A stretch of DNA of 64,000 bases from Firmicutes bacterium UBA6811 (lineage in GTDB: Bacteria; Bacillota; SHA-98; UBA4971). Where the stretch lies: contig DKEX01000096.1 in the NCBI GenBank assembly GCA_002452295.1, forward strand, positions 16,349-80,348. Reading direction: 5' to 3'. The notes beneath the pieces were generated by a model. The model had not been told where the DNA came from. It searched no databases and saw nothing but the letters and a program-made list of their open reading frames with translations. A program made the position numbers and the translations under genes. Positions within the stretch are counted from its first letter, which is position 1; every line of letters starts with the position of its first letter. This document shows, one piece after another, positions 7,300-64,000 of the stretch.

Positions 7300-7605
7300 G
7301 TGTGAGTTCACAGATCCATGGCGGTGTGGAAGGAGCTTCCAGGTTGCCGGTGTCGCACTCGGGGACGGCGCCCCAGGCGAGGCGTCTTGATGGAATAGGG
7401 TCGGGAGCGTTTTGCACCCTCACTCAGTGCTACCCCGAGAATAGCCGGCGGTTGCCATTTTCATCCTGCGATGGTGGCGGCCGTAGGCCGGCATGGAGGC
7501 CTACTTTGTCAGATACGGAATGCCATCCGGTTTGGCGGGTCTGGCGGCCTTGTCTGGTAGGGCGACTCTCGGCCCCGGTGGCCATTGACCGTCCAGTCCC
7601 CGGAG

Positions 7606-7775
7606 GACCCGTGATGTGCGGAACGGGTAAGGCGGAAAGAGTGACGCACGTCATCCTTCCCCTTGCATGCGTGACACAGGGAACGGGCGGGACCCGGACC
7701 CGTGATGTACATCACTGGATGGCTCTCAAAGATGACGTAGGGAACGGTTGATGAGGGACCCGTGACGTACGTCAC
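7606..7775 (+). repeat. Degenerate ~60-bp tandem repeats (about 3 copies) carrying three phased 14-bp palindromes GTGAYGYRCRTCAY and periodic GGAACGG
   Basis: GGAACGG occurs at 7620, 7680 and 7741. The palindromes are GTGACGCACGTCAT (7642-7655), GTGATGTACATCAC (7703-7716, perfect) and GTGACGTACGTCAC (7762-7775, perfect). GGACCCGTGAYGTRC recurs three times. Confidence 0.65.
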
Positions 7776-7896
7776 CCGTCAGCTCAAGTGACGGCACTGC
7801 CAAGAGCTCGATATGTGACAGAGGAGTATCAGGGGGTTAGGGGGTGATCATCTGAAGCAAAAGCCTGATAAGTCCCGCGAGGACCGGAAGCGAAAG

Positions 7897-8499
7897 GTGC
7901 TCGAGGCAGCGATCAAGGAATTCGCCGAAAGGGGCTATGCCGCCGCTTCGACCAACGCCATCGCGAAGGACGCGGGCGTCGCAAAGGGGCTCGTCTTCCA
8001 CCATTTCGGAAGCAAGAAGGACCTGTATCTCGCTGTCCTGGACCACTGTCTCGAGACGCAGACGGACTATTTCATGGCACGGGTGAAGCGTCCCTATCCG
8101 TCCGACATCATCGACCGCGTCGTCGAGTGGGGCGCCGTCAAACTGGAGATGGTGTACCGGTTCCCTCTCATGCATCGTCTCCTCATCACCGCCTTTCTGG
8201 ACATGCCGGCTGAAGTCAAGCCCGAGGTGGACAGGCGGATCCATGCCATCACGGAGAGAAGCTGGAAGCTGTTTTGGGACGGCATCGACCTTTCCCGCCT
8301 AAGAGAAGACACTGACAGGCGCAAGGCCGTTGAGCTGCTCATGGTTGCCATGGACGGCCTGCAACAAAAGTACGTGGAGCAGTACAGGCAGAACCCCGGG
8401 GACCTCATCGCCCGCGCACACGAAGTGTACCAGGAAGTCAGGGAGTACATGGAGATCCTGCGATACGGTCTGTACAAGAGGCCCGATCAGGGCATCTAG
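7897..8499 (+). CDS. TetR/AcrR family transcriptional regulator
   Basis: The HTH is LEAAIKEFAERGYAAASTNAIAKDAGVAKGLVFHHFGSKKDLY. The GTG start at 7897 is uncertain. The in-frame upstream region (7819-7896) has typical TetR N-terminal residues but no canonical start codon. Confidence 0.8.
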   Translation: MLEAAIKEFAERGYAAASTNAIAKDAGVAKGLVFHHFGSKKDLYLAVLDHCLETQTDYFMARVKRPYPSDIIDRVVEWGAVKLEMVYRFPLMHRLLITAFLDMPAEVKPEVDRRIHAITERSWKLFWDGIDLSRLREDTDRRKAVELLMVAMDGLQQKYVEQYRQNPGDLIARAHEVYQEVREYMEILRYGLYKRPDQGI

Positions 8500-8647
8500 T
8501 CCATGCGTCGGCCGGACAAGCGGACACGCTCCGTCAAGAGGGCGCAACGTAGGATCCAGAAGGAAGTCGAGGCGGCCAGGTCCGGCTTTCTAAGCACCGT
8601 CTCGATAGAACCGCACAGATAACTGCCGCATAACTGCCGCATCACTA

Positions 8648-55410: not shown

Positions 55411-58400
55411 GTGAAACCTCGTATCGCGCGATCGATACCTTACGCGGTTGCGGCGCTCGCGGCGGCTGCGGCGCTCGCGTTTCTCGCAAGGCCGCTTTCT
55501 GCAGATAGCGCCGATAAGGGTTACCTTTACATGTATACGGAGGAGAGGGTATGGGCGCCTTCCGAGCACCCGTCCGTGATAGTCCGAGGTCGGAGCGCGA
55601 CGCGGATTGACTTCACAGTGTGGAGGTTCAACCCCATCACGCAATACCAGGCGCGTGGGTCGCTGCACTCGGCCGCGGAGGCCCTACCTCAGGGCGGGGC
55701 GGTGCTGGTGAAGAGGCTCACGGAGTATCCGCGCCCGAACAAGCGGGGTGGGGACTACACTTTGAGGGTGCCCGTGCCTGCCGACAGGGTCGCGGGCTAC
55801 GTCGTGAAGGCGCGCGACAGCCACGGCCGCGAGGACACCACGTGGATCCTCGTGACCGACCTCGGCCTCGTGACGAAGCAGGCGCAGGATAAGCTCCTCG
55901 TGTACGCCCACACCTTTGGCAAGGACGCGCCGTGCGCGGGCGCGAAGGTCGCCGTGTACAGCGAGGGCAAGGAGGTCGGAAGCGGAACCACAGGGGGCGA
56001 TGGCCTGTGGGTGCTGAACGCCCCGGGCCTTGCAAAGGGCCTTTCGGTGGTCGGGACGGCAGGCGAGAGCTTCGCCCAGGTGACCTCGTCCTACTACTGG
56101 GAGGACTCCCGCTACAAGGCGTACATCTACACCGACAGGCCCGTATACCGGCCGGGCCAGCGGGTGTTCTTCAAGGGCATCCTCCGCGACGAGGACGGCG
56201 GAGACTACAAGGTGCTCGCGGGCGAGCCCGTCCGCGTGGAGGTGCGTGACGCGCGCGACGCGTGCATCTACAAGACCGAGGCCACGACGAACAGCTTCGG
56301 CTCATTCACCGGCGATCTCGTGCTCGGGGACGAGCCGGCGCTCGGCGTTTGCCGGGTGCTCGCCACGGTGAGGGGGAGCACGCACTCGGGCGCGTTCAAG
56401 GTGGCGGAGTACCGCAAGCCCGAGTACCAGGTGCAGGTGGAAGTGCCGAAGACCACGTACGTGGCGGGCGACGAGGTCCCGGTGAGCGTGAAGGCCGCCT
56501 ACTACTTCGGCGCGCCAGTCCCAGGTGCAAAGGTCAAATACGCCGCGTACTCCCAGCCGCACTACTTCTCGTACTACTCCTTCGAGGACCTTGGTTACTA
56601 TCCGGTCGGCGACGAGGACTTCGGGTACTACGGCGAGCTTGTGGCGTCCGGCGAAGGCGTGACGGACTCAAGTGGGCGCATGTCGTTCGCCATCAAGACG
56701 CAAAAGGCGGACACGACGAGGAAGATGTTCATCGAAGCGGTCGTGACCGACGAGAGCAGGCGCGAGGTCACGGGCAGAACCTCGGTGATCGTGGCGCGGG
56801 GGCTGTTCGACGTGAGCGTGCAGCCGGCGGCCTACGTGGTGGAGCCGGGCAAGCCTGCCACCGTGCGGGTGAAGGCCGAGACCATAGAGGGCAAGCCGCT
56901 TGCCGTGCGGCTCGAGTGGCAGGCCGTGCGCCGGACATGGGAGAACAAGAAGGCCAGGCGGTGGAAGGAGGCGTCGGGCGCGCTGCGCACGGCGGCCGAC
57001 GGGACGGGGAGCTTTGAGTTCACGCCGCGCGAGGAAGGGTCCTACGTGGTGGAGGTCGCCGGGACCGACGAACGCGGCAACCGGATCGTCTCCGAAGCGT
57101 ATCTCTGGGTCACGAGCGGAGCGAGCCGCTGGGCGAGTTACGGCGGCACCGAGATAGAGATCGTGGCCGACAAGGACGTGTACGAGATCGGGGACACGGC
57201 GAAGATCCTCGTGAACACCACGCTCGACGACGCGTGGGCGGTGGTGACGGTCGAGGGGCGCGACCTTGCCTCGCACGGGGTGGTCCACATCATGGGCCAC
57301 ACGAGGCTGTTCGAGGTCCCCATCACCCGGGAGCACCTTCCGAACGCGTTCTTCACCGTGACGATAGTCCGCGGGAAGAGGCTCTTCTCCAGGGAGAAGA
57401 CCATCTATGTGTCGACGAAGGACAACTACCTGAACGTGGCGATCATTCCGAACAAGGAGACCTACGGTCCCGGCGACAAGGCTACCTATGTGGTGAAGAC
57501 GACGGATGCGGCGGGCCGCCCGGTGCAGTCCGAGGTGTCGCTGGGGGTCGTGGACGCATCCATATACGCGATCCAGCCGGAGATGGCGCCCGACATAAAG
57601 AAGGCGTTCTACGGGTCCATCTGGAACAGGGTGGTCACGAGCTATTCGTTCCCGGAGTGGTATTACGGAGGTGCCGACAAAGTCGGCGGGTCGGCGGACG
57701 TGAGGAGGAAGTTCGAGGACACGGCCTTCTGGAATCCCACCATCGTGACGGACCGAAACGGCACCGGGAAGATCGAGTTCGTCATGCCGGATAACCTCAC
57801 GACGTGGCGGGCGACCGCGAGGGCCCACACCCTCAAGACCCAGGTGGGGTCGGCGACTCGAGACGTGGTGACGACCAAGGACCTCGTCGTGAGGCTTGCG
57901 ACGCCGCGCTTGTTCACGCTGGGCGACCGGACGGCGGTCTCGACGATCGTCCACAACTACACCGGGCGCAAGATTAAGGCGAAGATCACTCTCAAGGCCG
58001 AGGGTGTCACGCTGAAAGATGCGGGCGAGCGCGAGGTGGAGCTTGGCCCCATGGGCCAGGCCTCGCTCGACTGGAAGGTTGAGTGCGGCGAGGTCGGAGT
58101 CGCACGCTTTGCGGCGTCGGCCCAGGCTGACGTCGGACGGGCGCGGGACGCGCTTGAAATGGGCGTGCCGGTGCTGCCCTTCGGTAGGCGGCACGAGCGA
58201 CACGAGGCTGGCGAGGTGGGCGGCGATGCCGCTAGCGGCGCAGGGGCCGGGAAGGCGCTCGTCAGGTTCGATGTGCCAGAGGACGCGCTGCCTGGCACGG
58301 TCGACGTGAAGGTGCGGCTCGCGCCATCGGTTGCGGCCGCGGCCCTGGGGGCTCTCGAATACCTGGCGTCGTTCCCGTACGGGTGTGTGGAGCAGACCAT

Positions 58401-60531
58401 GAACTCCTTCCTGCCCGACGTGGTGGTGGCCTGGACGCTAAAGGATCTCGGGGTGGAGGCGCCGCCTGAAGTCGAGCAGGACCTGCCGAGGATGGTCTCG
58501 GCGGGCCTCGCGAGGCTCTACCGCTACCAGCACTACGACGGAGGATGGGGCTGGTGGGAGTACGACCAGACGGACCCGAGGATGACCGCTTACGTGGTAT
58601 ACGGCCTCGACCTTGCGCGGAAGGCGGGGTTCGAGGTGGACGGCCAGGTGCTCGCGCGAGGGAAGAGAGCGCTTGTCGAGCTTGCTGGTAGGCCGCGCGA
58701 CGTGGACGACCTCGTATACAAGCTCTACGTCATGTCCGAGGTGGGCGAGAGGAGCCTTGCGAGGCTCGACGAGATGGTGGCGAGGCGGCTCGAGCTTTCC
58801 GAATACTCGCTTGCGCTCCTCGTGCTTACTCTCGACAACGTGGGCCGGGCCGATGATGCCAGGGAGGTGCTCCAGGATCTCCTGGCGTCGGCGCGGGGCG
58901 ACGACATGCTCACCTACTGGGACGCGCCGGAGGGCGAGCGGTACTGGGCGGACAACCGCGTGGAGACCACGGCGTACGCGCTCATGGCGATGCTTGCGGT
59001 GGACCCCGGGAACGAGAAGGTCCCGGGAGCGGTGAGGTGGCTTGCGGACGCGCGGCAGGGCAAGGCATGGTTCTCAACCAAGGACACCGCCGTGGCCGTG
59101 TTCGCGCTGGCGGAGTACCTGAAGCTACGCGACGAGGTCGCGCCGAACTACACCGCTACCGTCAGCATCAACGGAAAAGATGTCAAGAAGGTGCATTTCA
59201 CCAGAAAGGACGTCTTCGGGAAGGAGATCGAGGTCAGCATAGACGCGCGCGACCTTGCGCGCGGGCAGAATGAGATCACCATCGCGAAGGACGGCGGGAA
59301 GGGCAGGCTGTACTACACGTTCTCTTGTGAGTACTACACGGCTGCGGACTCCGTGGCGCCCGAAGGGCAGGGCCTCGCGGTGACCCGGGGCTACTACCGG
59401 AGGGCCCCGGCGCCGGCCGCTGCCGGGCGCGAGAGGCGCGAGGACGGAAAGACGCGCGGCGGTGAGGAGAAGCCGGAGTACGTGTACGAACCCGTGACCG
59501 GCGCTGTGAAGCCGGGCGAGGAGATATACGTTCGCATAAACATCAAGGCCGATAGCCCGTATACCTATATGATCATCGAAGATCCGCTCCCGTCGGGCTT
59601 CGAGACTTCGGATGAGCCGATCGACGTCTATAGCTGGCACTTCTCGTACGGCAGGAAGGAGGTCCGCGACGAGAAGGTGGCCTTCTTCAGCGGCTACCTG
59701 AAGGAGGGCGAAGACGAGATCGTGTACCCCATACGAGCTGAGCGGCCCGGGGATTACCGGGTCATGCCGACGCGGGTGTGGGGCATGTACTCGCCTGACG
59801 TCTTCGGCCAGTCGGCAAGCTCGGAGATCTCCTGCAGGGAGCCGGTGCTTGCGAGCTTCTCCACGACGCTCAAGGACCCGGAGGAGAGCCGCAACTACAA
59901 CGTTGCGCTGGCTGCGGCCGCCATCGACGGAGTCGTGCTCCAGCCGGGCGAGGAGTTCTCCTTCGACCGGGTCGTAGGGCCGAGGCTCGCGGAGGCCGGC
60001 TACAGGAATGCGCGGGTGATCTCCGGAGGCAAGAGCGTGCCGGGGATCGGCGGAGGGGTATGCCAGGTGTCGACGACCCTCTACAACGTGGCTCTCCTCG
60101 CCGGGCTCGAGATCGTCGAGCGCCACCCGCACTCAAGGCCGGTTGGGTACGTCCCGCCCGGGCTTGATGCTACGGTGGCCGAAGGCCAGTACGATCTCAG
60201 GTTCCGGAACACGCTTGGGGTGCCGCTGACGCTGGGCGCCCGCGTGGACGGGAACAGGTTGCTGATGGAGGCGCGGGCGCCTCTCGCGGAGGCCCCGGAG
60301 GTGCGCGTGACCACTGAGGTCCAGGGGACCGAGAGGCCGAGGCTCATCGGCGGGGTCGGTGCGGGCACCACGGGCGCTGTGGCCGAGCCGGGGGGGCCTG
60401 CCTACGGAGGCGAGAGCGGCATCCGCGTTGCAGTGTGGAGGAGTTTTTCCTCAGGCGGCGAAGCCACAAAGGAGCTGGTATCCGAGGATTATTACAAGCC
60501 GGTGCACGCGGTGGCCTCGTCGGTGCGGTAG
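55411..60531 (+). CDS. Secreted alpha-2-macroglobulin family protein with intact thioester (GCVEQ), fused to a C-terminal VanW domain
   Basis: It has a signal peptide and multiple MG domains. The thioester FPYGCVEQTMNSF is at about aa 990. The C-terminal VanW block is GGKSVPGIGGGVCQVSTTLYNVALLAG. It is 1706 aa. Confidence 0.8.
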   Translation: MKPRIARSIPYAVAALAAAAALAFLARPLSADSADKGYLYMYTEERVWAPSEHPSVIVRGRSATRIDFTVWRFNPITQYQARGSLHSAAEALPQGGAVLVKRLTEYPRPNKRGGDYTLRVPVPADRVAGYVVKARDSHGREDTTWILVTDLGLVTKQAQDKLLVYAHTFGKDAPCAGAKVAVYSEGKEVGSGTTGGDGLWVLNAPGLAKGLSVVGTAGESFAQVTSSYYWEDSRYKAYIYTDRPVYRPGQRVFFKGILRDEDGGDYKVLAGEPVRVEVRDARDACIYKTEATTNSFGSFTGDLVLGDEPALGVCRVLATVRGSTHSGAFKVAEYRKPEYQVQVEVPKTTYVAGDEVPVSVKAAYYFGAPVPGAKVKYAAYSQPHYFSYYSFEDLGYYPVGDEDFGYYGELVASGEGVTDSSGRMSFAIKTQKADTTRKMFIEAVVTDESRREVTGRTSVIVARGLFDVSVQPAAYVVEPGKPATVRVKAETIEGKPLAVRLEWQAVRRTWENKKARRWKEASGALRTAADGTGSFEFTPREEGSYVVEVAGTDERGNRIVSEAYLWVTSGASRWASYGGTEIEIVADKDVYEIGDTAKILVNTTLDDAWAVVTVEGRDLASHGVVHIMGHTRLFEVPITREHLPNAFFTVTIVRGKRLFSREKTIYVSTKDNYLNVAIIPNKETYGPGDKATYVVKTTDAAGRPVQSEVSLGVVDASIYAIQPEMAPDIKKAFYGSIWNRVVTSYSFPEWYYGGADKVGGSADVRRKFEDTAFWNPTIVTDRNGTGKIEFVMPDNLTTWRATARAHTLKTQVGSATRDVVTTKDLVVRLATPRLFTLGDRTAVSTIVHNYTGRKIKAKITLKAEGVTLKDAGEREVELGPMGQASLDWKVECGEVGVARFAASAQADVGRARDALEMGVPVLPFGRRHERHEAGEVGGDAASGAGAGKALVRFDVPEDALPGTVDVKVRLAPSVAAAALGALEYLASFPYGCVEQTMNSFLPDVVVAWTLKDLGVEAPPEVEQDLPRMVSAGLARLYRYQHYDGGWGWWEYDQTDPRMTAYVVYGLDLARKAGFEVDGQVLARGKRALVELAGRPRDVDDLVYKLYVMSEVGERSLARLDEMVARRLELSEYSLALLVLTLDNVGRADDAREVLQDLLASARGDDMLTYWDAPEGERYWADNRVETTAYALMAMLAVDPGNEKVPGAVRWLADARQGKAWFSTKDTAVAVFALAEYLKLRDEVAPNYTATVSINGKDVKKVHFTRKDVFGKEIEVSIDARDLARGQNEITIAKDGGKGRLYYTFSCEYYTAADSVAPEGQGLAVTRGYYRRAPAPAAAGRERREDGKTRGGEEKPEYVYEPVTGAVKPGEEIYVRINIKADSPYTYMIIEDPLPSGFETSDEPIDVYSWHFSYGRKEVRDEKVAFFSGYLKEGEDEIVYPIRAERPGDYRVMPTRVWGMYSPDVFGQSASSEISCREPVLASFSTTLKDPEESRNYNVALAAAAIDGVVLQPGEEFSFDRVVGPRLAEAGYRNARVISGGKSVPGIGGGVCQVSTTLYNVALLAGLEIVERHPHSRPVGYVPPGLDATVAEGQYDLRFRNTLGVPLTLGARVDGNRLLMEARAPLAEAPEVRVTTEVQGTERPRLIGGVGAGTTGAVAEPGGPAYGGESGIRVAVWRSFSSGGEATKELVSEDYYKPVHAVASSVR

Positions 60532-60659
60532 GCGCGGTGGAAAGACACGGTGCTCTGTGTCACGAACCTCCGAGCTCATCCGGCCGGGGAGGCTGATGAG
60601 CTGTCAAAGCCCGCTTGCGACATCCTTGATTCCTGACAGCGTGAGACGGAGGGAGTTGC

Positions 60660-62066
60660 TTGGCTGAGCAGGCCACGAGCATAGGGCTGCGCAAGGCTCC
60701 CCCGACGCCGGATGCGGCGCCGGGGGATGCTGTTGCTATAAGGCGCAAGGTTGTCCAGTTGTCGCTACCCGTATTCGCCGAGGTCGTGCTGCAGACGTTG
60801 ACGCAGGTCGTGGACATGGCCATGGTCGGGCGGCTGGGCGCAAGCGCGATTGCGGCGGTGGGCCTGAGCATGCAGCCGCTCTTTCTGGGGCAGGGCGTGT
60901 TCATGGGGCTGTCCGTGGGCACGACCGCCCTTGTGGCGAGGTTCACGGGGGCGGGGGACCGGCGGATGGCCGGGCGCACGAACCACCAGTCTCTCCTGGT
61001 ATCGACGGCTCTGGCGCTGGTGATGTGCGCCGCTGCGTACGTGTATGCCCGCGATATCGTGACCCTGATGGGCGCCGAGCCCGATGTGGTTGCCCTGGGC
61101 ACGTCATATCTGAGGTACCTGGTGCCGGGGTTCGCGATGCTTCTCGCCACGATGACCGTGGGAGGGGCGTTGCGGGGGGCCGGCGACACGACCACGCCCA
61201 TGAAGATCAACGTGCTGGTGAACCTCGTCAACGTGGCGGGAAACTACATGCTCATCTTCGGGCATTTCGGGTTCCCGGCGCTCGGGATCGATGGGGCGGC
61301 CATCGCCACGACCGTATCGAGGATGATCGGCGGCGTCCTCTTCCTGTGGGCGGCCTGGCGCAGCGGCTCCCCCGTCGCGCTGCCACGGCTTCGCCTGGCG
61401 GCCTGCTTCAGGATTGATACCGCCGTCGTTGGGCGGGTGCTCAGGATAGGCGTGCCGGCGATCCTCGAGAGGCTCGTCATAAGCTCCGGGATGCTCGTGT
61501 ACATCAGAGCAGTAGCCGGGCTGGGAACGGTCGTGTACGCTGCCCACAACATAGCCAACAACGCCGAGTCGCTGTCCTTCATGCCAGGCCTTGCGTTTGC
61601 CACGGCCGCCACCGCCCTGGTCGGCCAGGGCCTTGGCGCTGGAAGGCCCGACGTTGCTGAGCGAAGCGCCAGGGAGGCACTGAAGCTGGGGCTTGCCGTG
61701 ATGGGCACGATGGCGCTGGTGTTCCTTGCGGTGCCGCAGTATCTCATGATGATTTACACGTCCGACCCCGAGATAATCAGGCTGGGGTCCATTGCGCTCC
61801 GGGTGATCTCTTTCGGGCAGGTGCCGATGGGCACGGCGTTCATTTTCTCCGGCGCCCTGCGCGGAGCGGGCGACACGCGGTCAGTGCTCTACGTCACGGC
61901 CTTCGCGGTGTGGGTGGTCAGGCTCAGCGCTACCTACCTGCTTGTGGTGGTAGGCGGGCTCGGTCTCTTCGGCGCGTGGCTCGCCATGGTGGCGGACTGG
62001 CTCGTGCGCGGCGGCTATGTATGGCACCGGTTCAGGGCGGGCAGGTGGAAGCAGCTACAGGTGTAA
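60660..62066 (+). CDS. MATE family efflux transporter
   Basis: It has 12 TMs and the MATE signature (LPVFAEVVLQTLTQVVDMAMVGRLG...GALRGAGDT twice). Confidence 0.85.
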   Translation: MAEQATSIGLRKAPPTPDAAPGDAVAIRRKVVQLSLPVFAEVVLQTLTQVVDMAMVGRLGASAIAAVGLSMQPLFLGQGVFMGLSVGTTALVARFTGAGDRRMAGRTNHQSLLVSTALALVMCAAAYVYARDIVTLMGAEPDVVALGTSYLRYLVPGFAMLLATMTVGGALRGAGDTTTPMKINVLVNLVNVAGNYMLIFGHFGFPALGIDGAAIATTVSRMIGGVLFLWAAWRSGSPVALPRLRLAACFRIDTAVVGRVLRIGVPAILERLVISSGMLVYIRAVAGLGTVVYAAHNIANNAESLSFMPGLAFATAATALVGQGLGAGRPDVAERSAREALKLGLAVMGTMALVFLAVPQYLMMIYTSDPEIIRLGSIALRVISFGQVPMGTAFIFSGALRGAGDTRSVLYVTAFAVWVVRLSATYLLVVVGGLGLFGAWLAMVADWLVRGGYVWHRFRAGRWKQLQV

Positions 62067-62217
62067 CGGTGCTTTCTCGCCGTCCTGGCGGTTGCGCCTG
62101 GGTTATGTGCCCTTCCGGCACGGTTATCGCGTATGTGTGATAGCTCCGGGGTTTCTCCTGCTGGCGGCGCCGGGAGCCATCACATGATGAAAACTGAGCT
62201 AGCAGTATCCCTGCGGG

Positions 62218-62347
62218 AATATCGCATATATGCGATATTGGCAGATCGCCTGTGCAGATCGCCTGTGCTGGTGGTCCTCGCCGCCGTCGAACGAGGAAAA
62301 CGAGGCTACCATTGTCTCTGCGGAACTATCGCATACATGCAATATCG
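62218..62347 (+). repeat. Two copies of a palindromic element, plus a 13-bp tandem direct repeat, upstream of the MATE remnant
   Basis: AATATCGCATATATGCGATATT is a perfect 22-bp palindrome at 62218-62239. The related ACTATCGCATACATGCAATATCG is at 62324-62347. The direct repeat GCAGATCGCCTGT x2 is at 62241-62266. Confidence 0.6.
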
Positions 62348-62543
62348 CCCAGGTTCTACATGCCGGATGACGCCGGGCGCACTACCGGCCGACAGGGGCA
62401 GCGCGCGCCGTCGGGCAACTCTGCTATTGCGGTGCCTGCTGTGCGAGTTCACTCCCTGCCCCGCTTGGCTCCCCGCGATGTCCGCCTTCCTGGACCCGCT
62501 GTGTGCGATCATGTTTATTTGACGGTGCGACGGAGGAACAGGA

Positions 62544-63125
62544 ATGACAACATCCGCTGCGATTTCACACCCACTGCCTGAGAAGGCCGAGATCGACCGC
62601 GAGATACGCAGGCTTGCGTGGCCCGCCATCGCCGAGATGTTGCTCCACATGTTCGTGTGGGCTGTGGACACCGCCATGGTGGGCCGCCTCGGCGCCAGGG
62701 GGGCCGACCGGGCGGTGCAGGTGGGCTACAGGTCGCTGCGCTACTCGGTGGCGGTCATGGGAAGCGTTGCCCTGGCGTTCCTCCTGGTCGCGGGCTTGAT
62801 TATCAGGATGTTCACGAACGATGCGGAGGTCATCCGGATCGGGTCGGTGTGCCTGCGGATAGCCGCCTTCGAGCAGGTGTTCATCGGCATAACCGACACC
62901 CTGTGCGGCTGGCTCCGCGGCGCCGGGGACACCCGCACCGCGCTTCGCATAACCGCCGCGGGCACCTAGCTCGTCCGCATGCCCGTCGTCGTGCTCGCCA
63001 TCTACGTCCTTCACCTCGGGCTTCCGGCCGTCTGGGTCATAACCTGCCTCGACTGGGCCGTCCGCTCCGTCCTTGCAGCGAGACACTTCCGCCCCGGCAG
63101 GTGGCAGGAGGTGAAAGTTCATCGA
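62544..63125 (+). pseudogene. MATE transporter remnant (paralog of 60660-62066) with an internal deletion and an in-frame stop
   Basis: The N-terminal ~55 aa (LAWPAIAEMLLHMFVWAVDTAMVGRLGA) join directly to a C-terminal-half-like sequence (FTNDAEVIRIGSVCLRIAAFEQVFIGI...WLRGAGDTRTAL). An in-frame TAG at 62967-62969 interrupts it, after which the reading frame continues as ...VWVITCLDWAVRSVLAARHFRPGRWQE. Confidence 0.55.
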
Positions 63126-64000
63126 GTATCACCCATGCTCCGTTGGCGGGCTCCGGGCGCATGGGCGCCATGGGAGTCAGAAAATGGCATCGGCTGCTGC
63201 ACGCGTCCAGGTTTGACGCATAGCGGTCCGTATGATAGAATAAGAATTACCAAAAACCAAAACGGCCGATGAGGACCAGCCGATCCGCTTGAACGCTGAA
63301 TTCCCATCTGTGGGAAGCGGGGGACCCAACTCTTGGGGCTAATCCCGGCGGTCGGGGCCTGTGGGCCGCGTGTCGGGGAGACGCATCATACCCGTTGTGC
63401 TTCTCCCGCATGACACGCGCCGCACCCGCAGCGCACCGCCCCGGGACGGGTCAGACTCTTTCGATCCGAGCCCGTCAGCTAACCTCGTAAGCGTGGGAAG
63501 AGGAGGTGGGTTGGGTGGAAGCCTTTCGACCATGGCATGGACGGTCCATGTCCGTCGATTGTGGCTTCACCCAGGGAAGACCCACCCTGGGTGATTTGCT
63601 TCCCTCTCCCTCTGCCACTTCGTTGTCCTTCCTCAGCGGATGGTGTGAAACGGCCGCAACCGCCGCAAGGCGCAGGTAACGCAACACGTGGGCGCGACGA
63701 GTCCATGCGCCCATGTGGGCCCGCGTCGGCCCCGCGCTCAGCTTACCCTGCGTCGTGCGAGTTGCACTGACGAGAACGGCGATCCGGTTCGAGCCGCCGG
63801 CCACGCGCCGCGCGCGCGAGAACACCGGTTGTCGCCCCCGGGCATTGCATTGCCCGAAAGACGCAACAGGGCGGCGGTTTGTGCCCGCGGTGCGGCTTCC
63901 GCTCGAGAGGCGGAACTCATGCAACGGAGCGGCGTCTGGTCCTCGGCGAAAGAGCGAGGAGGGAACGAGATGAGGTTCGAAAACAGGTTCTCAGTGCTGG

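Follow-up and report, generated by a model that had tools for sequence, protein, structure and literature searches.

A gene that stays intact in close relatives may be lost in one lineage through a deletion between short direct repeats and through nonsense mutation, and what is left is a unitary pseudogene. The gene considered here belongs to the MATE transporters (PF01554/TIGR00797; NorM-, DinF- and YeeO-type), and the palindromic DNA next to it invites comparison with the operators of efflux-pump repressors (TetR/QacR- and MarR-type) and, from general knowledge, with MIRU-type tandem units and REP/BIME repeats. The locus lies in a 64,000-nucleotide stretch of Firmicutes bacterium UBA6811 (GTDB lineage Bacteria; Bacillota; SHA-98; UBA4971), taken from GenBank assembly GCA_002452295.1, contig DKEX01000096.1, positions 16,349 to 80,348 of the forward strand, and referred to below as the window. 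Here an intact MATE gene, MATE-A, is followed on the same strand by a spacer carrying palindromes and then by a shortened, nonsense-interrupted MATE-like reading frame, MATE-B. An earlier note on this DNA, made from the sequence alone, had taken the second frame for a recent and decaying tandem copy of the first and the palindromes for candidate operators of a MarR- or TetR-type regulator. Our comparison with related genomes leads elsewhere: the second frame is very probably a pseudogene of a common kind, left by the recent inactivation of an old partner gene, and the palindromes are most likely a lineage-confined repeat rather than operators of B.

Results

MATE-B retains the two ends of a 456-residue transporter

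MATE-A (60660..62066, + strand) encodes an intact transporter of 468 amino acids (aa). It matches the Pfam MatE domain (PF01554) twice, with 220 bits, and the TIGR00797 profile with 314.7 bits (cutoff 147.4), which places it in the MATE family. The intact B of a related genome (L035) likewise passes the TIGR00797 cutoff of 147.4, with 275.8 bits. The NCBIfam equivalog cutoffs (NorM, YeeO, DinF and others) were reached by neither MATE-A nor intact B.

The MATE-B remnant (62544..63122, + strand) comprises 193 codons. Prediction of open reading frames (ORFs), Pfam and alignment agree with the earlier description of an intact MATE gene followed, from 62544, by a MATE-like frame with an in-frame TAG, and also with its observation that only the ends of a MATE protein are kept. 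Residues 1-51 of the remnant align with the MATE N-terminus, and residues 43-192 are 41% identical to residues 318-468 of A over 151 aa (E 4e-34), so that homology to MATE proteins holds. The motif LRGAGDT, which the note had reported in the form GALRGAGDT, is present in the remnant. Pfam recognized a single partial MatE stretch (63 bits, profile positions 47-151 of 161). An ungapped alignment places the remnant on codons 1-51 and 315-456 of the intact 456-aa orthologue, from which it follows that exactly 263 codons (789 bp) have been deleted. With 263 of 456 codons gone and a TAG in frame, the remnant lacks the two domains of the family and is a member by descent only.

The junction of this in-frame deletion, by which codons 52-314 were lost, maps to 62686..62699 (+ strand) within the direct repeat GCCTCGGCGC(C). 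In four intact orthologues the N-terminal site reads ...GGCCGCCTCGGCGC... and the C-terminal site ...CAGAGCCTCGGCGCC..., and the window reads GGCCGCCTCGGCGCCAGGGGGGCC at the junction. Around the left break the intact orthologues carry ...GTGGGCCGCCTCGGCGC... (VGRLGA) and around the right break ...GGACAGAGCCTCGGCGCC... (VGQSLGA), and the window carries GTGGGCCGCCTCGGCGCCAGGGGG. Both end points thus fall within a direct repeat of about 10 bp, GCCTCGGCGC, that encodes the "LGA" motif of both protein halves. We propose that codons 52-314 were removed in one in-frame event at this repeat, most likely by replication slippage or short-homology illegitimate recombination, and that the repeat occurs twice because the two pseudo-symmetric halves of a MATE protein both encode a VG.(.)LGA motif.

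Further lesions accompany the deletion. Codon 142 of the remnant is the nonsense codon TAG (62967..62969, + strand), where the orthologues have TGG; tryptophan occupies this column in all of them, namely the six intact genes described below and the proteins P0001 and P0002. The ancestral stop codon of B (63123..63125, + strand) has changed from TGA to CGA, as judged by alignment with relatives, and the frame stays open past it to a TGA at 63270-63272. Alignable similarity between the window and its relatives ends at the ancestral stop. Upstream, a vestigial promoter-like element of B (62491..62519, + strand), recognized from the consensus and a conserved block only, reads TGGACC-17 nt-TTTATT; in the relatives the corresponding position shows TGGACC-17-TATACT, and the second base of the -10-like hexamer, A in them, has become T in the window. 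Going by the consensus only, this hexamer would be damaged. The remnant retains its ATG and a GGAGGA ribosome-binding site, and a 141-aa product of exactly this sequence is called on nine contigs. The 141-aa "MatE" ORF annotated in several public assemblies is very probably a pseudogene fragment, which is a matter for annotation.

The same allele occurs in independent datasets

Nine contigs carry this form of B; they come from two ENA assemblies, three Logan-assembled SRA runs, the metagenome-assembled genome (MAG) GCA_002441185.1 and three JGI metagenomes, and the SRA runs carrying it are SRR5324010, SRR5323240 and SRR13427963. Over 61400-64000 seven further contigs are 99.96-100% identical to the window, save for 8 N calls in one of them (L049), and an eighth, from the strain variant L047, is 99.67% identical up to 63204 and diverges after that position. 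The further contigs share the deletion junction and the TAG, as well as the three palindromes and the 13-bp repeat described below. A collapsed assembly or a base-call error might mimic a deletion and a stop, and it is true that the source is a metagenome assembly and that several contigs break in A near 61400. Yet eight other contigs, which differ in run, assembler and project, match over 61400-64000, and an assembly at k=141 is not collapsible by a 10-bp repeat. Since the same allele is found in independent datasets, the chance that it is an artefact is negligible. This speaks to the assembly check proposed in the earlier note, which had also allowed that B might prove full-length once a sequencing error was corrected: it does not, the deletion and the TAG being the same in all nine contigs.

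The strain variant L047 (ENA ERZ27315056), which co-occurs with the window's strain, carries unrelated sequence past 63204 (L047 3662-3876), ending in the start of an ORF (MDGAETKLLVGRDFTEAELELI...). Its divergence marks 63204/63205 as a strain-level rearrangement breakpoint, some 80 bp past the old stop of B. Inside MATE-A, contigs of four independent assemblies end at about 61400-61415, and L047 has six substitutions clustered at 61418-61451; these contig breaks and clustered substitutions suggest that 61400-61451 is a strain-variable or recombined patch.

A and B form an old tandem pair

The decay envisaged in the earlier note is borne out by the deletion and the nonsense codon, but the recent duplication is not. 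The A and B proteins share only about 40% identity, and a blastn comparison of the region from B onward with A gave no significant DNA similarity (best 70 nt at 71%). We found the pair in six related genomes (L035, L036, L037, L039/L040, L041 and L042), and in six of six the gene order is an alpha-2-macroglobulin/VanW gene, A (443-469 aa), an intact 456-aa B and a class II ribonucleotide reductase gene. The identity of A to B is 40-42% in every one of these genomes too. The window remnant is 85-87% identical in amino acids and 87-91% in nucleotides to B of L035, L041 and L042 over the C-terminal 150 residues, and its first 52 residues are 77% identical to B of the relatives. A word-based protein search with the remnant initially returned fragments only; P0001 and P0002 are 59-68% identical to it.

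Four more distant relatives, reached through the loci of P0001 and P0002 (L002, L005, L033 and L034), have one MATE gene between the alpha-2-macroglobulin/VanW and class II ribonucleotide reductase genes. This sole MATE is B-like, with 53-76% identity to B and 31-49% to A. Because the more distant relatives carry only a B-type MATE here, the comparison indicates that B is the long-resident gene of the locus and not a copy of A. Likewise, since an intact B follows A in all six genomes at the same divergence of about 40%, the two genes are, on this comparison, ancient paralogues in conserved tandem, and what is recent and lineage-specific is the loss of B alone. The pair thus offers no evidence of recent gene amplification. 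A metagenome scan for relatives of A found none closer than 56% identity and yielded no extra spacer comparisons.

In one of the distant relatives, the Bacillota MAG L002 (GCA_013178415.1), the B orthologue (7543-8519) is likewise broken, and it has the same form in three datasets. There, about codons 120-265 have been deleted out of frame and a CAG has changed to TAG; a 172-aa C-terminal ORF of B is kept, and the pseudogene adjoins a PIN/MazE pair, not A. We considered a short form shared ancestrally by the window and L002 and rejected it, as the deletion and the nonsense codon of L002 differ from those of the window. Divergence between the two sequences is 25%, 17% and 54% at the three codon positions, a pattern which implies that most of their separation occurred under protein-level selection. 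The two losses of B were probably independent and parallel. A first hit shared by the window and L002 is the less probable course, though the larger deletion in the window would have erased the lesions seen in L002.

Selection is strong on A and may have relaxed on B

Orthologues of MATE-A in the six related genomes are 82-95% identical, and the ratio of non-synonymous to synonymous substitution rates (dN/dS) of MATE-A relative to L035 is 0.06, which indicates that A is under strong purifying selection. For the retained parts of B, dN/dS relative to L035, L041 and L042 is 0.17-0.19. Between intact B orthologues of the clade it ranges from 0.08 to 0.16, with 0.28 for the nearly identical pair L035/L041. 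When the distances among the window, L035 and L042 were split by hand, the window branch received about 0.21 and the other two about 0.15. Changes in B specific to the window number 13 non-synonymous to 6 synonymous, set against 8:11, 5:8 and 4:2 in intact lineages, although these counts are small. There are 116 columns invariant across all six intact orthologues, and seven of them are hit by window-specific changes, including an S>W replacement beside the LRGAGD motif. The corresponding leave-one-out counts are 0-4 for L035, L041, L036, L042 and L039, and 18 for the most divergent sequence, L037. Small as the numbers are, this substitution pattern would fit a recent release from constraint.

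The spacer carries a lineage-specific palindrome array

The A-B spacer (62067..62543) measures 477 bp, of which the first 415 bp or so are lineage-specific and the last 60 bp or so homologous to relatives. In the relatives it is 33, 51, 132, 134 or 407 bp long, and the sequences are unrelated except for those last 60 bp before the ATG of B. The spacer segment is less GC-rich than its surroundings. All of the repeats listed in the earlier note are present, namely a perfect 22-bp palindrome, a near-copy (107 bp later by our measurement) and a 13-bp tandem repeat; its total of two palindromes falls one short, as it missed a third and degenerate copy at 62123-62144. This copy 0 (GTTATCGCGTATGTGTGATAGC, 62123..62144) has three mismatches to the 18-mer core, lies 95 bp upstream of the perfect copy and belongs to tandem unit 0 (~62064-62158). 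Copy 1 (AATATCGCATATATGCGATATT, 62218..62239) is the perfect 22-bp dyad, in unit 1 (62159-62265). Copy 2 (ACTATCGCATACATGCAATATC, 62325..62346), in unit 2 (62266-~62372), has two mismatches to the core and begins 107 bp after copy 1, to which it is identical at 18/22 positions in register. The three copies belong to as many tandem units, now diverged and about 95-107 bp long; identity between units 1 and 2 is 71% over 80 nt. Tandem Repeats Finder reported the 13-bp tandem duplication (GCAGATCGCCTGT x2.2, 62241..62268) with 100% matches, and it accounts for the difference between the 107-bp and the 95-bp spacing. For the 18-mer core at up to three mismatches, 3 matches were observed where 0.01 were expected from 100 shuffles.

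The reading of the dyads as MarR- or TetR-type operators found no support in their surroundings. From the dyad centres to the -35-like TGGACC (62491) downstream the distances are about 155, 262 and 357 bp, which puts the array 145-370 bp ahead of the predicted promoter-like element of B, and a promoter scan scored no sigma-70-type site at the dyads. The genes within about 10 kb on either side include no regulator, of the helix-turn-helix kind or otherwise. At up to five mismatches the motif is absent from the L035-L042 loci, where B is alive, and the search of the genome sequence itself, 71 kb being available, gave no further copy of the palindromes or the array. In an informal comparison the dyad did not match the NrdR box, LexA, Zur and other operator consensus sequences.

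Broader searches for a relative of the array were equally negative in their respective scopes. Pfam gave no match for spacer ORFs in every frame at E<=1, and Rfam at E<=1 over 59500-64000 returned a c-di-AMP riboswitch only, with no match in the spacer. Neither a blastn comparison of the spacer with plasmid and phage sequences, a scan of viral contigs for the palindrome, nor a metagenome scan with the extended dyad and flank produced a match, and a full-text literature search for the motif found nothing. In 185,579 species genomes (596 Gb), this species' own genome not among them, TATCGCATAYATGCGATA matched 27 times in unrelated taxa, about the number expected by chance, with the perfect palindrome outnumbering the asymmetric variant 21:6. 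The contexts of these matches are mixed (long, terminator-like hairpins, and promoters of genes of the Gp49/HigB-like, ArsR and DUF6471 kinds), and for that reason no common regulator or binding protein can be inferred. One Saccharibacteria MAG, CAYIGA01, has the same 18-bp palindrome, with similar flanks (CTTTATCGCATATATGCGATAAAGT), on two contigs (L014 930 and L027 4776), perhaps as an operator or element that recurs in that genome, unrelated to the window. A strand-specific RNA hairpin was considered as well and rejected: the + strand gives the better fold for unit 0 and the - strand for unit 2, and the substitutions in the dyads are not consistently wobble-compatible on either.

A riboswitch block lies downstream of the remnant

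The region that follows B has a separate identity. A promoter-like site (63213..63241, + strand; TTGACG-17-TAGAAT, 10/12 matches, with an upstream TG), which would serve the riboswitch unit and is distinct from the MATE remnant, precedes a cyclic di-AMP (c-di-AMP, ydaO-type) riboswitch aptamer at 63284..63507 (+ strand), which matches Rfam RF00379 with 77.5 bits (gathering threshold 38, E 2e-17) over model positions 1-134 of 134. It is followed by a terminator-like hairpin (63567..63594, + strand) whose T-rich tail reaches about 63604. The riboswitch precedes an opine-dehydrogenase-like gene (366 aa, start 63970), a 561-aa protein with a B12-binding domain and an MntA/HepT-like pair, an unusual cargo for a c-di-AMP riboswitch. 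The block (63213-63604) continues past the window as L001 13311-17162. At about 5 kb, it lies between B and the reductase and is absent from all six relatives, and for this reason looks like an insertion. In the closest relatives, L035 (8208-9146) and L041 (8207-9145), the same interval holds a gene for a 312-aa GNAT acetyltransferase. With the GNAT gene in L035/L041, the riboswitch block in the window and nothing in other relatives, the interval between B and the reductase is, by this comparison, an insertion hot spot. Ahead of the reductase, L036 (~8050-8100) and L037 (~7870-7950) have repeated inverted motifs of the CCACAA...TTGTG(T/G) type that are reminiscent, by eye, of NrdR boxes.

Upstream of the MATE pair, 55411-60531 is a 1706-aa ORF with bacterial alpha-2-macroglobulin architecture (MG2, A2M, TED, bMG10) fused to a C-terminal VanW domain, and this ORF is conserved in all relatives. 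Other genes of the neighbourhood encode ThiS, a protein of the pyridine nucleotide-disulphide oxidoreductase family (Pyr_redox_2), NifU, a LysM protein and AMMECR1, besides the A2M/VanW, opine-dehydrogenase-like, B12-binding and MntA/HepT-like genes and the reductase already mentioned.

Discussion

Taken together, we take MATE-B for an orthologue, inactivated not long ago, of a second MATE gene that would normally stand intact, at 456 aa, right after MATE-A in a clade of uncultured Bacillota. MATE-A presumably carries the function alone. The spacer would be hypervariable filler in this clade, in which a unit of about 95 bp with an AT-rich dyad was triplicated in tandem and then diverged, and one unit was later lengthened by a 13-bp slippage duplication. 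Most likely the palindrome array is a lineage-specific repeat with no role in controlling B; the most that might be claimed for it is the binding of some protein. Several observations sit uneasily with this account. The dyad of unit 0 is conserved at 15/22 positions while its flanks are near-random, and the central 22-bp dyad is perfect; together these hint at constraint, and a neutral repeat leaves them unexplained. The centre-to-centre spacings of 95 and 107 bp correspond to about 9.0 and 10.2 helical turns. For B itself, dN/dS of the remnant over the whole branch is about 0.2, well under 1, which means either very recent inactivation or some constraint on the retained segments, and the ratio of 13:6 in the window against a pooled 17:21 is only suggestive.

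Other explanations share some of this evidence. That A was recently duplicated, with the copy decaying behind MarR- or TetR-type operators, suits two genes in tandem and in the same orientation, a remnant with disabling lesions and dyads as symmetric as many operators, but an intact pair of about 40% identity in six genomes, with no DNA similarity between A and B, makes it highly improbable, as do dyads that have no regulator within about 10 kb, are absent from every relative with a live B and are separated from the conserved promoter-like block downstream by 145-370 bp. More can be said for a functional array on which a dimeric DNA-binding protein would bind cooperatively, or loop the DNA, at three phased sites; such an array might affect the 3' end of A or provide a new promoter. 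A TGnGATATT-like extended -10 is found on both strands of each dyad, three copies far exceed the expected number, the dyad of unit 0 is far better conserved than its flanks, the spacings are near whole helical turns, and the 18-mer in unrelated genomes is often found in promoter regions beside genes for small regulators or toxins, for example Gp49/HigB-like, ArsR and DUF6471. Against such an array stand the lack of a cognate regulator nearby, of another site in 71 kb and of conservation in any relative; the 27 genome matches are close to chance, and many of them, in unrelated taxa, are simply terminators or long hairpins; of the three copies only the central one makes a good dyad, and no sigma-70-type site was found there. 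We regard it as doubtful, though with an appreciable chance of being right.

Less likely again is an origin of the ~415-bp spacer segment as the remnant of a mobile or repeat element (a hairpin-bearing MITE/PATE-like or REP-like one) that was inserted behind A and amplified locally. This would suit a segment that is lineage-specific and less GC-rich than its surroundings, filler that is unrelated in each relative, and a rearrangement hot spot nearby, where the cargo between B and the reductase differs in L035/L041, the window and L047; what speaks against it is that no second copy exists in 71 kb, no plasmid, phage or viral contig matches, the segment has no definable terminal inverted repeats or target duplication, and the Pfam search showed no trace of a transposase. 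As for the remnant, it could still function, as a 141-aa small membrane protein or a TAG read-through product, alone or by modulating MATE-A. The deletion is in frame, the ATG and GGAGGA are kept, dN/dS of the retained parts is about 0.2 and L002 also keeps a C-terminal ORF, of 172 aa. However, the seven changes in invariant columns, S>W beside LRGAGD among them, the nonsense codon, the lost stop and the damaged -10-like hexamer all count against a working product, the different lesions of L002 leave no shared short form, and recency explains the low dN/dS, so that we hold a functional remnant to be very unlikely. Slightly better placed, but still quite unlikely, is the more speculative view that the dyads are a new binding array or small tandem element whose arrival uncoupled B from A and triggered its decay or, alternatively, that the remnant is a small membrane protein modulating MATE-A. 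Recent loss of an old partner gene beside a neutral local repeat remains the reading we prefer.

How the locus compares with the systems named at the outset can now be stated. With TetR/QacR- and MarR-type operators it shares a perfect 22-bp dyad that is AT-rich in a GC-rich genome and close to a pump gene; it differs in that the dyads have no adjacent regulator, do not overlap the predicted promoter, are repeated about 100 bp apart in tandem units and are not conserved at orthologous loci. Going by general knowledge of MIRU-type units and REP/BIME, the array resembles them in its units of about 95 bp between same-strand genes and its hairpin-capable dyads, but it is known from one locus, its copies are about 70% identical instead of nearly alike, and none is dispersed in 71 kb; inspection by eye showed no REP-like GTAG head next to the dyads, for which no formal search was made. 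The spacer array is an unexplained local curiosity that would become of interest only if a binding protein or more copies turned up. Within the MATE family, MATE-A and the intact B orthologues are ordinary full-length members with two MatE domains each, whereas the 263 of 456 residues absent from the window's B remnant make the 12-helix fold impossible. The closest likeness is to a unitary pseudogene made by short-direct-repeat deletion and nonsense mutation: the locus has a repeat of about 10 bp at the deletion end points, further point lesions, intact orthologues in close relatives and a suggestive excess of non-synonymous lineage-specific changes. It departs from that pattern in that the deletion is in frame and that the microhomology comes from the internal pseudo-symmetry of the protein, LGA being encoded in both lobes, which is an unsurprising source. 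What the locus offers is a clean, datable case of gene loss by deletion at a short repeat that stems from the protein's own symmetry, next to a paralogue under strong selection.

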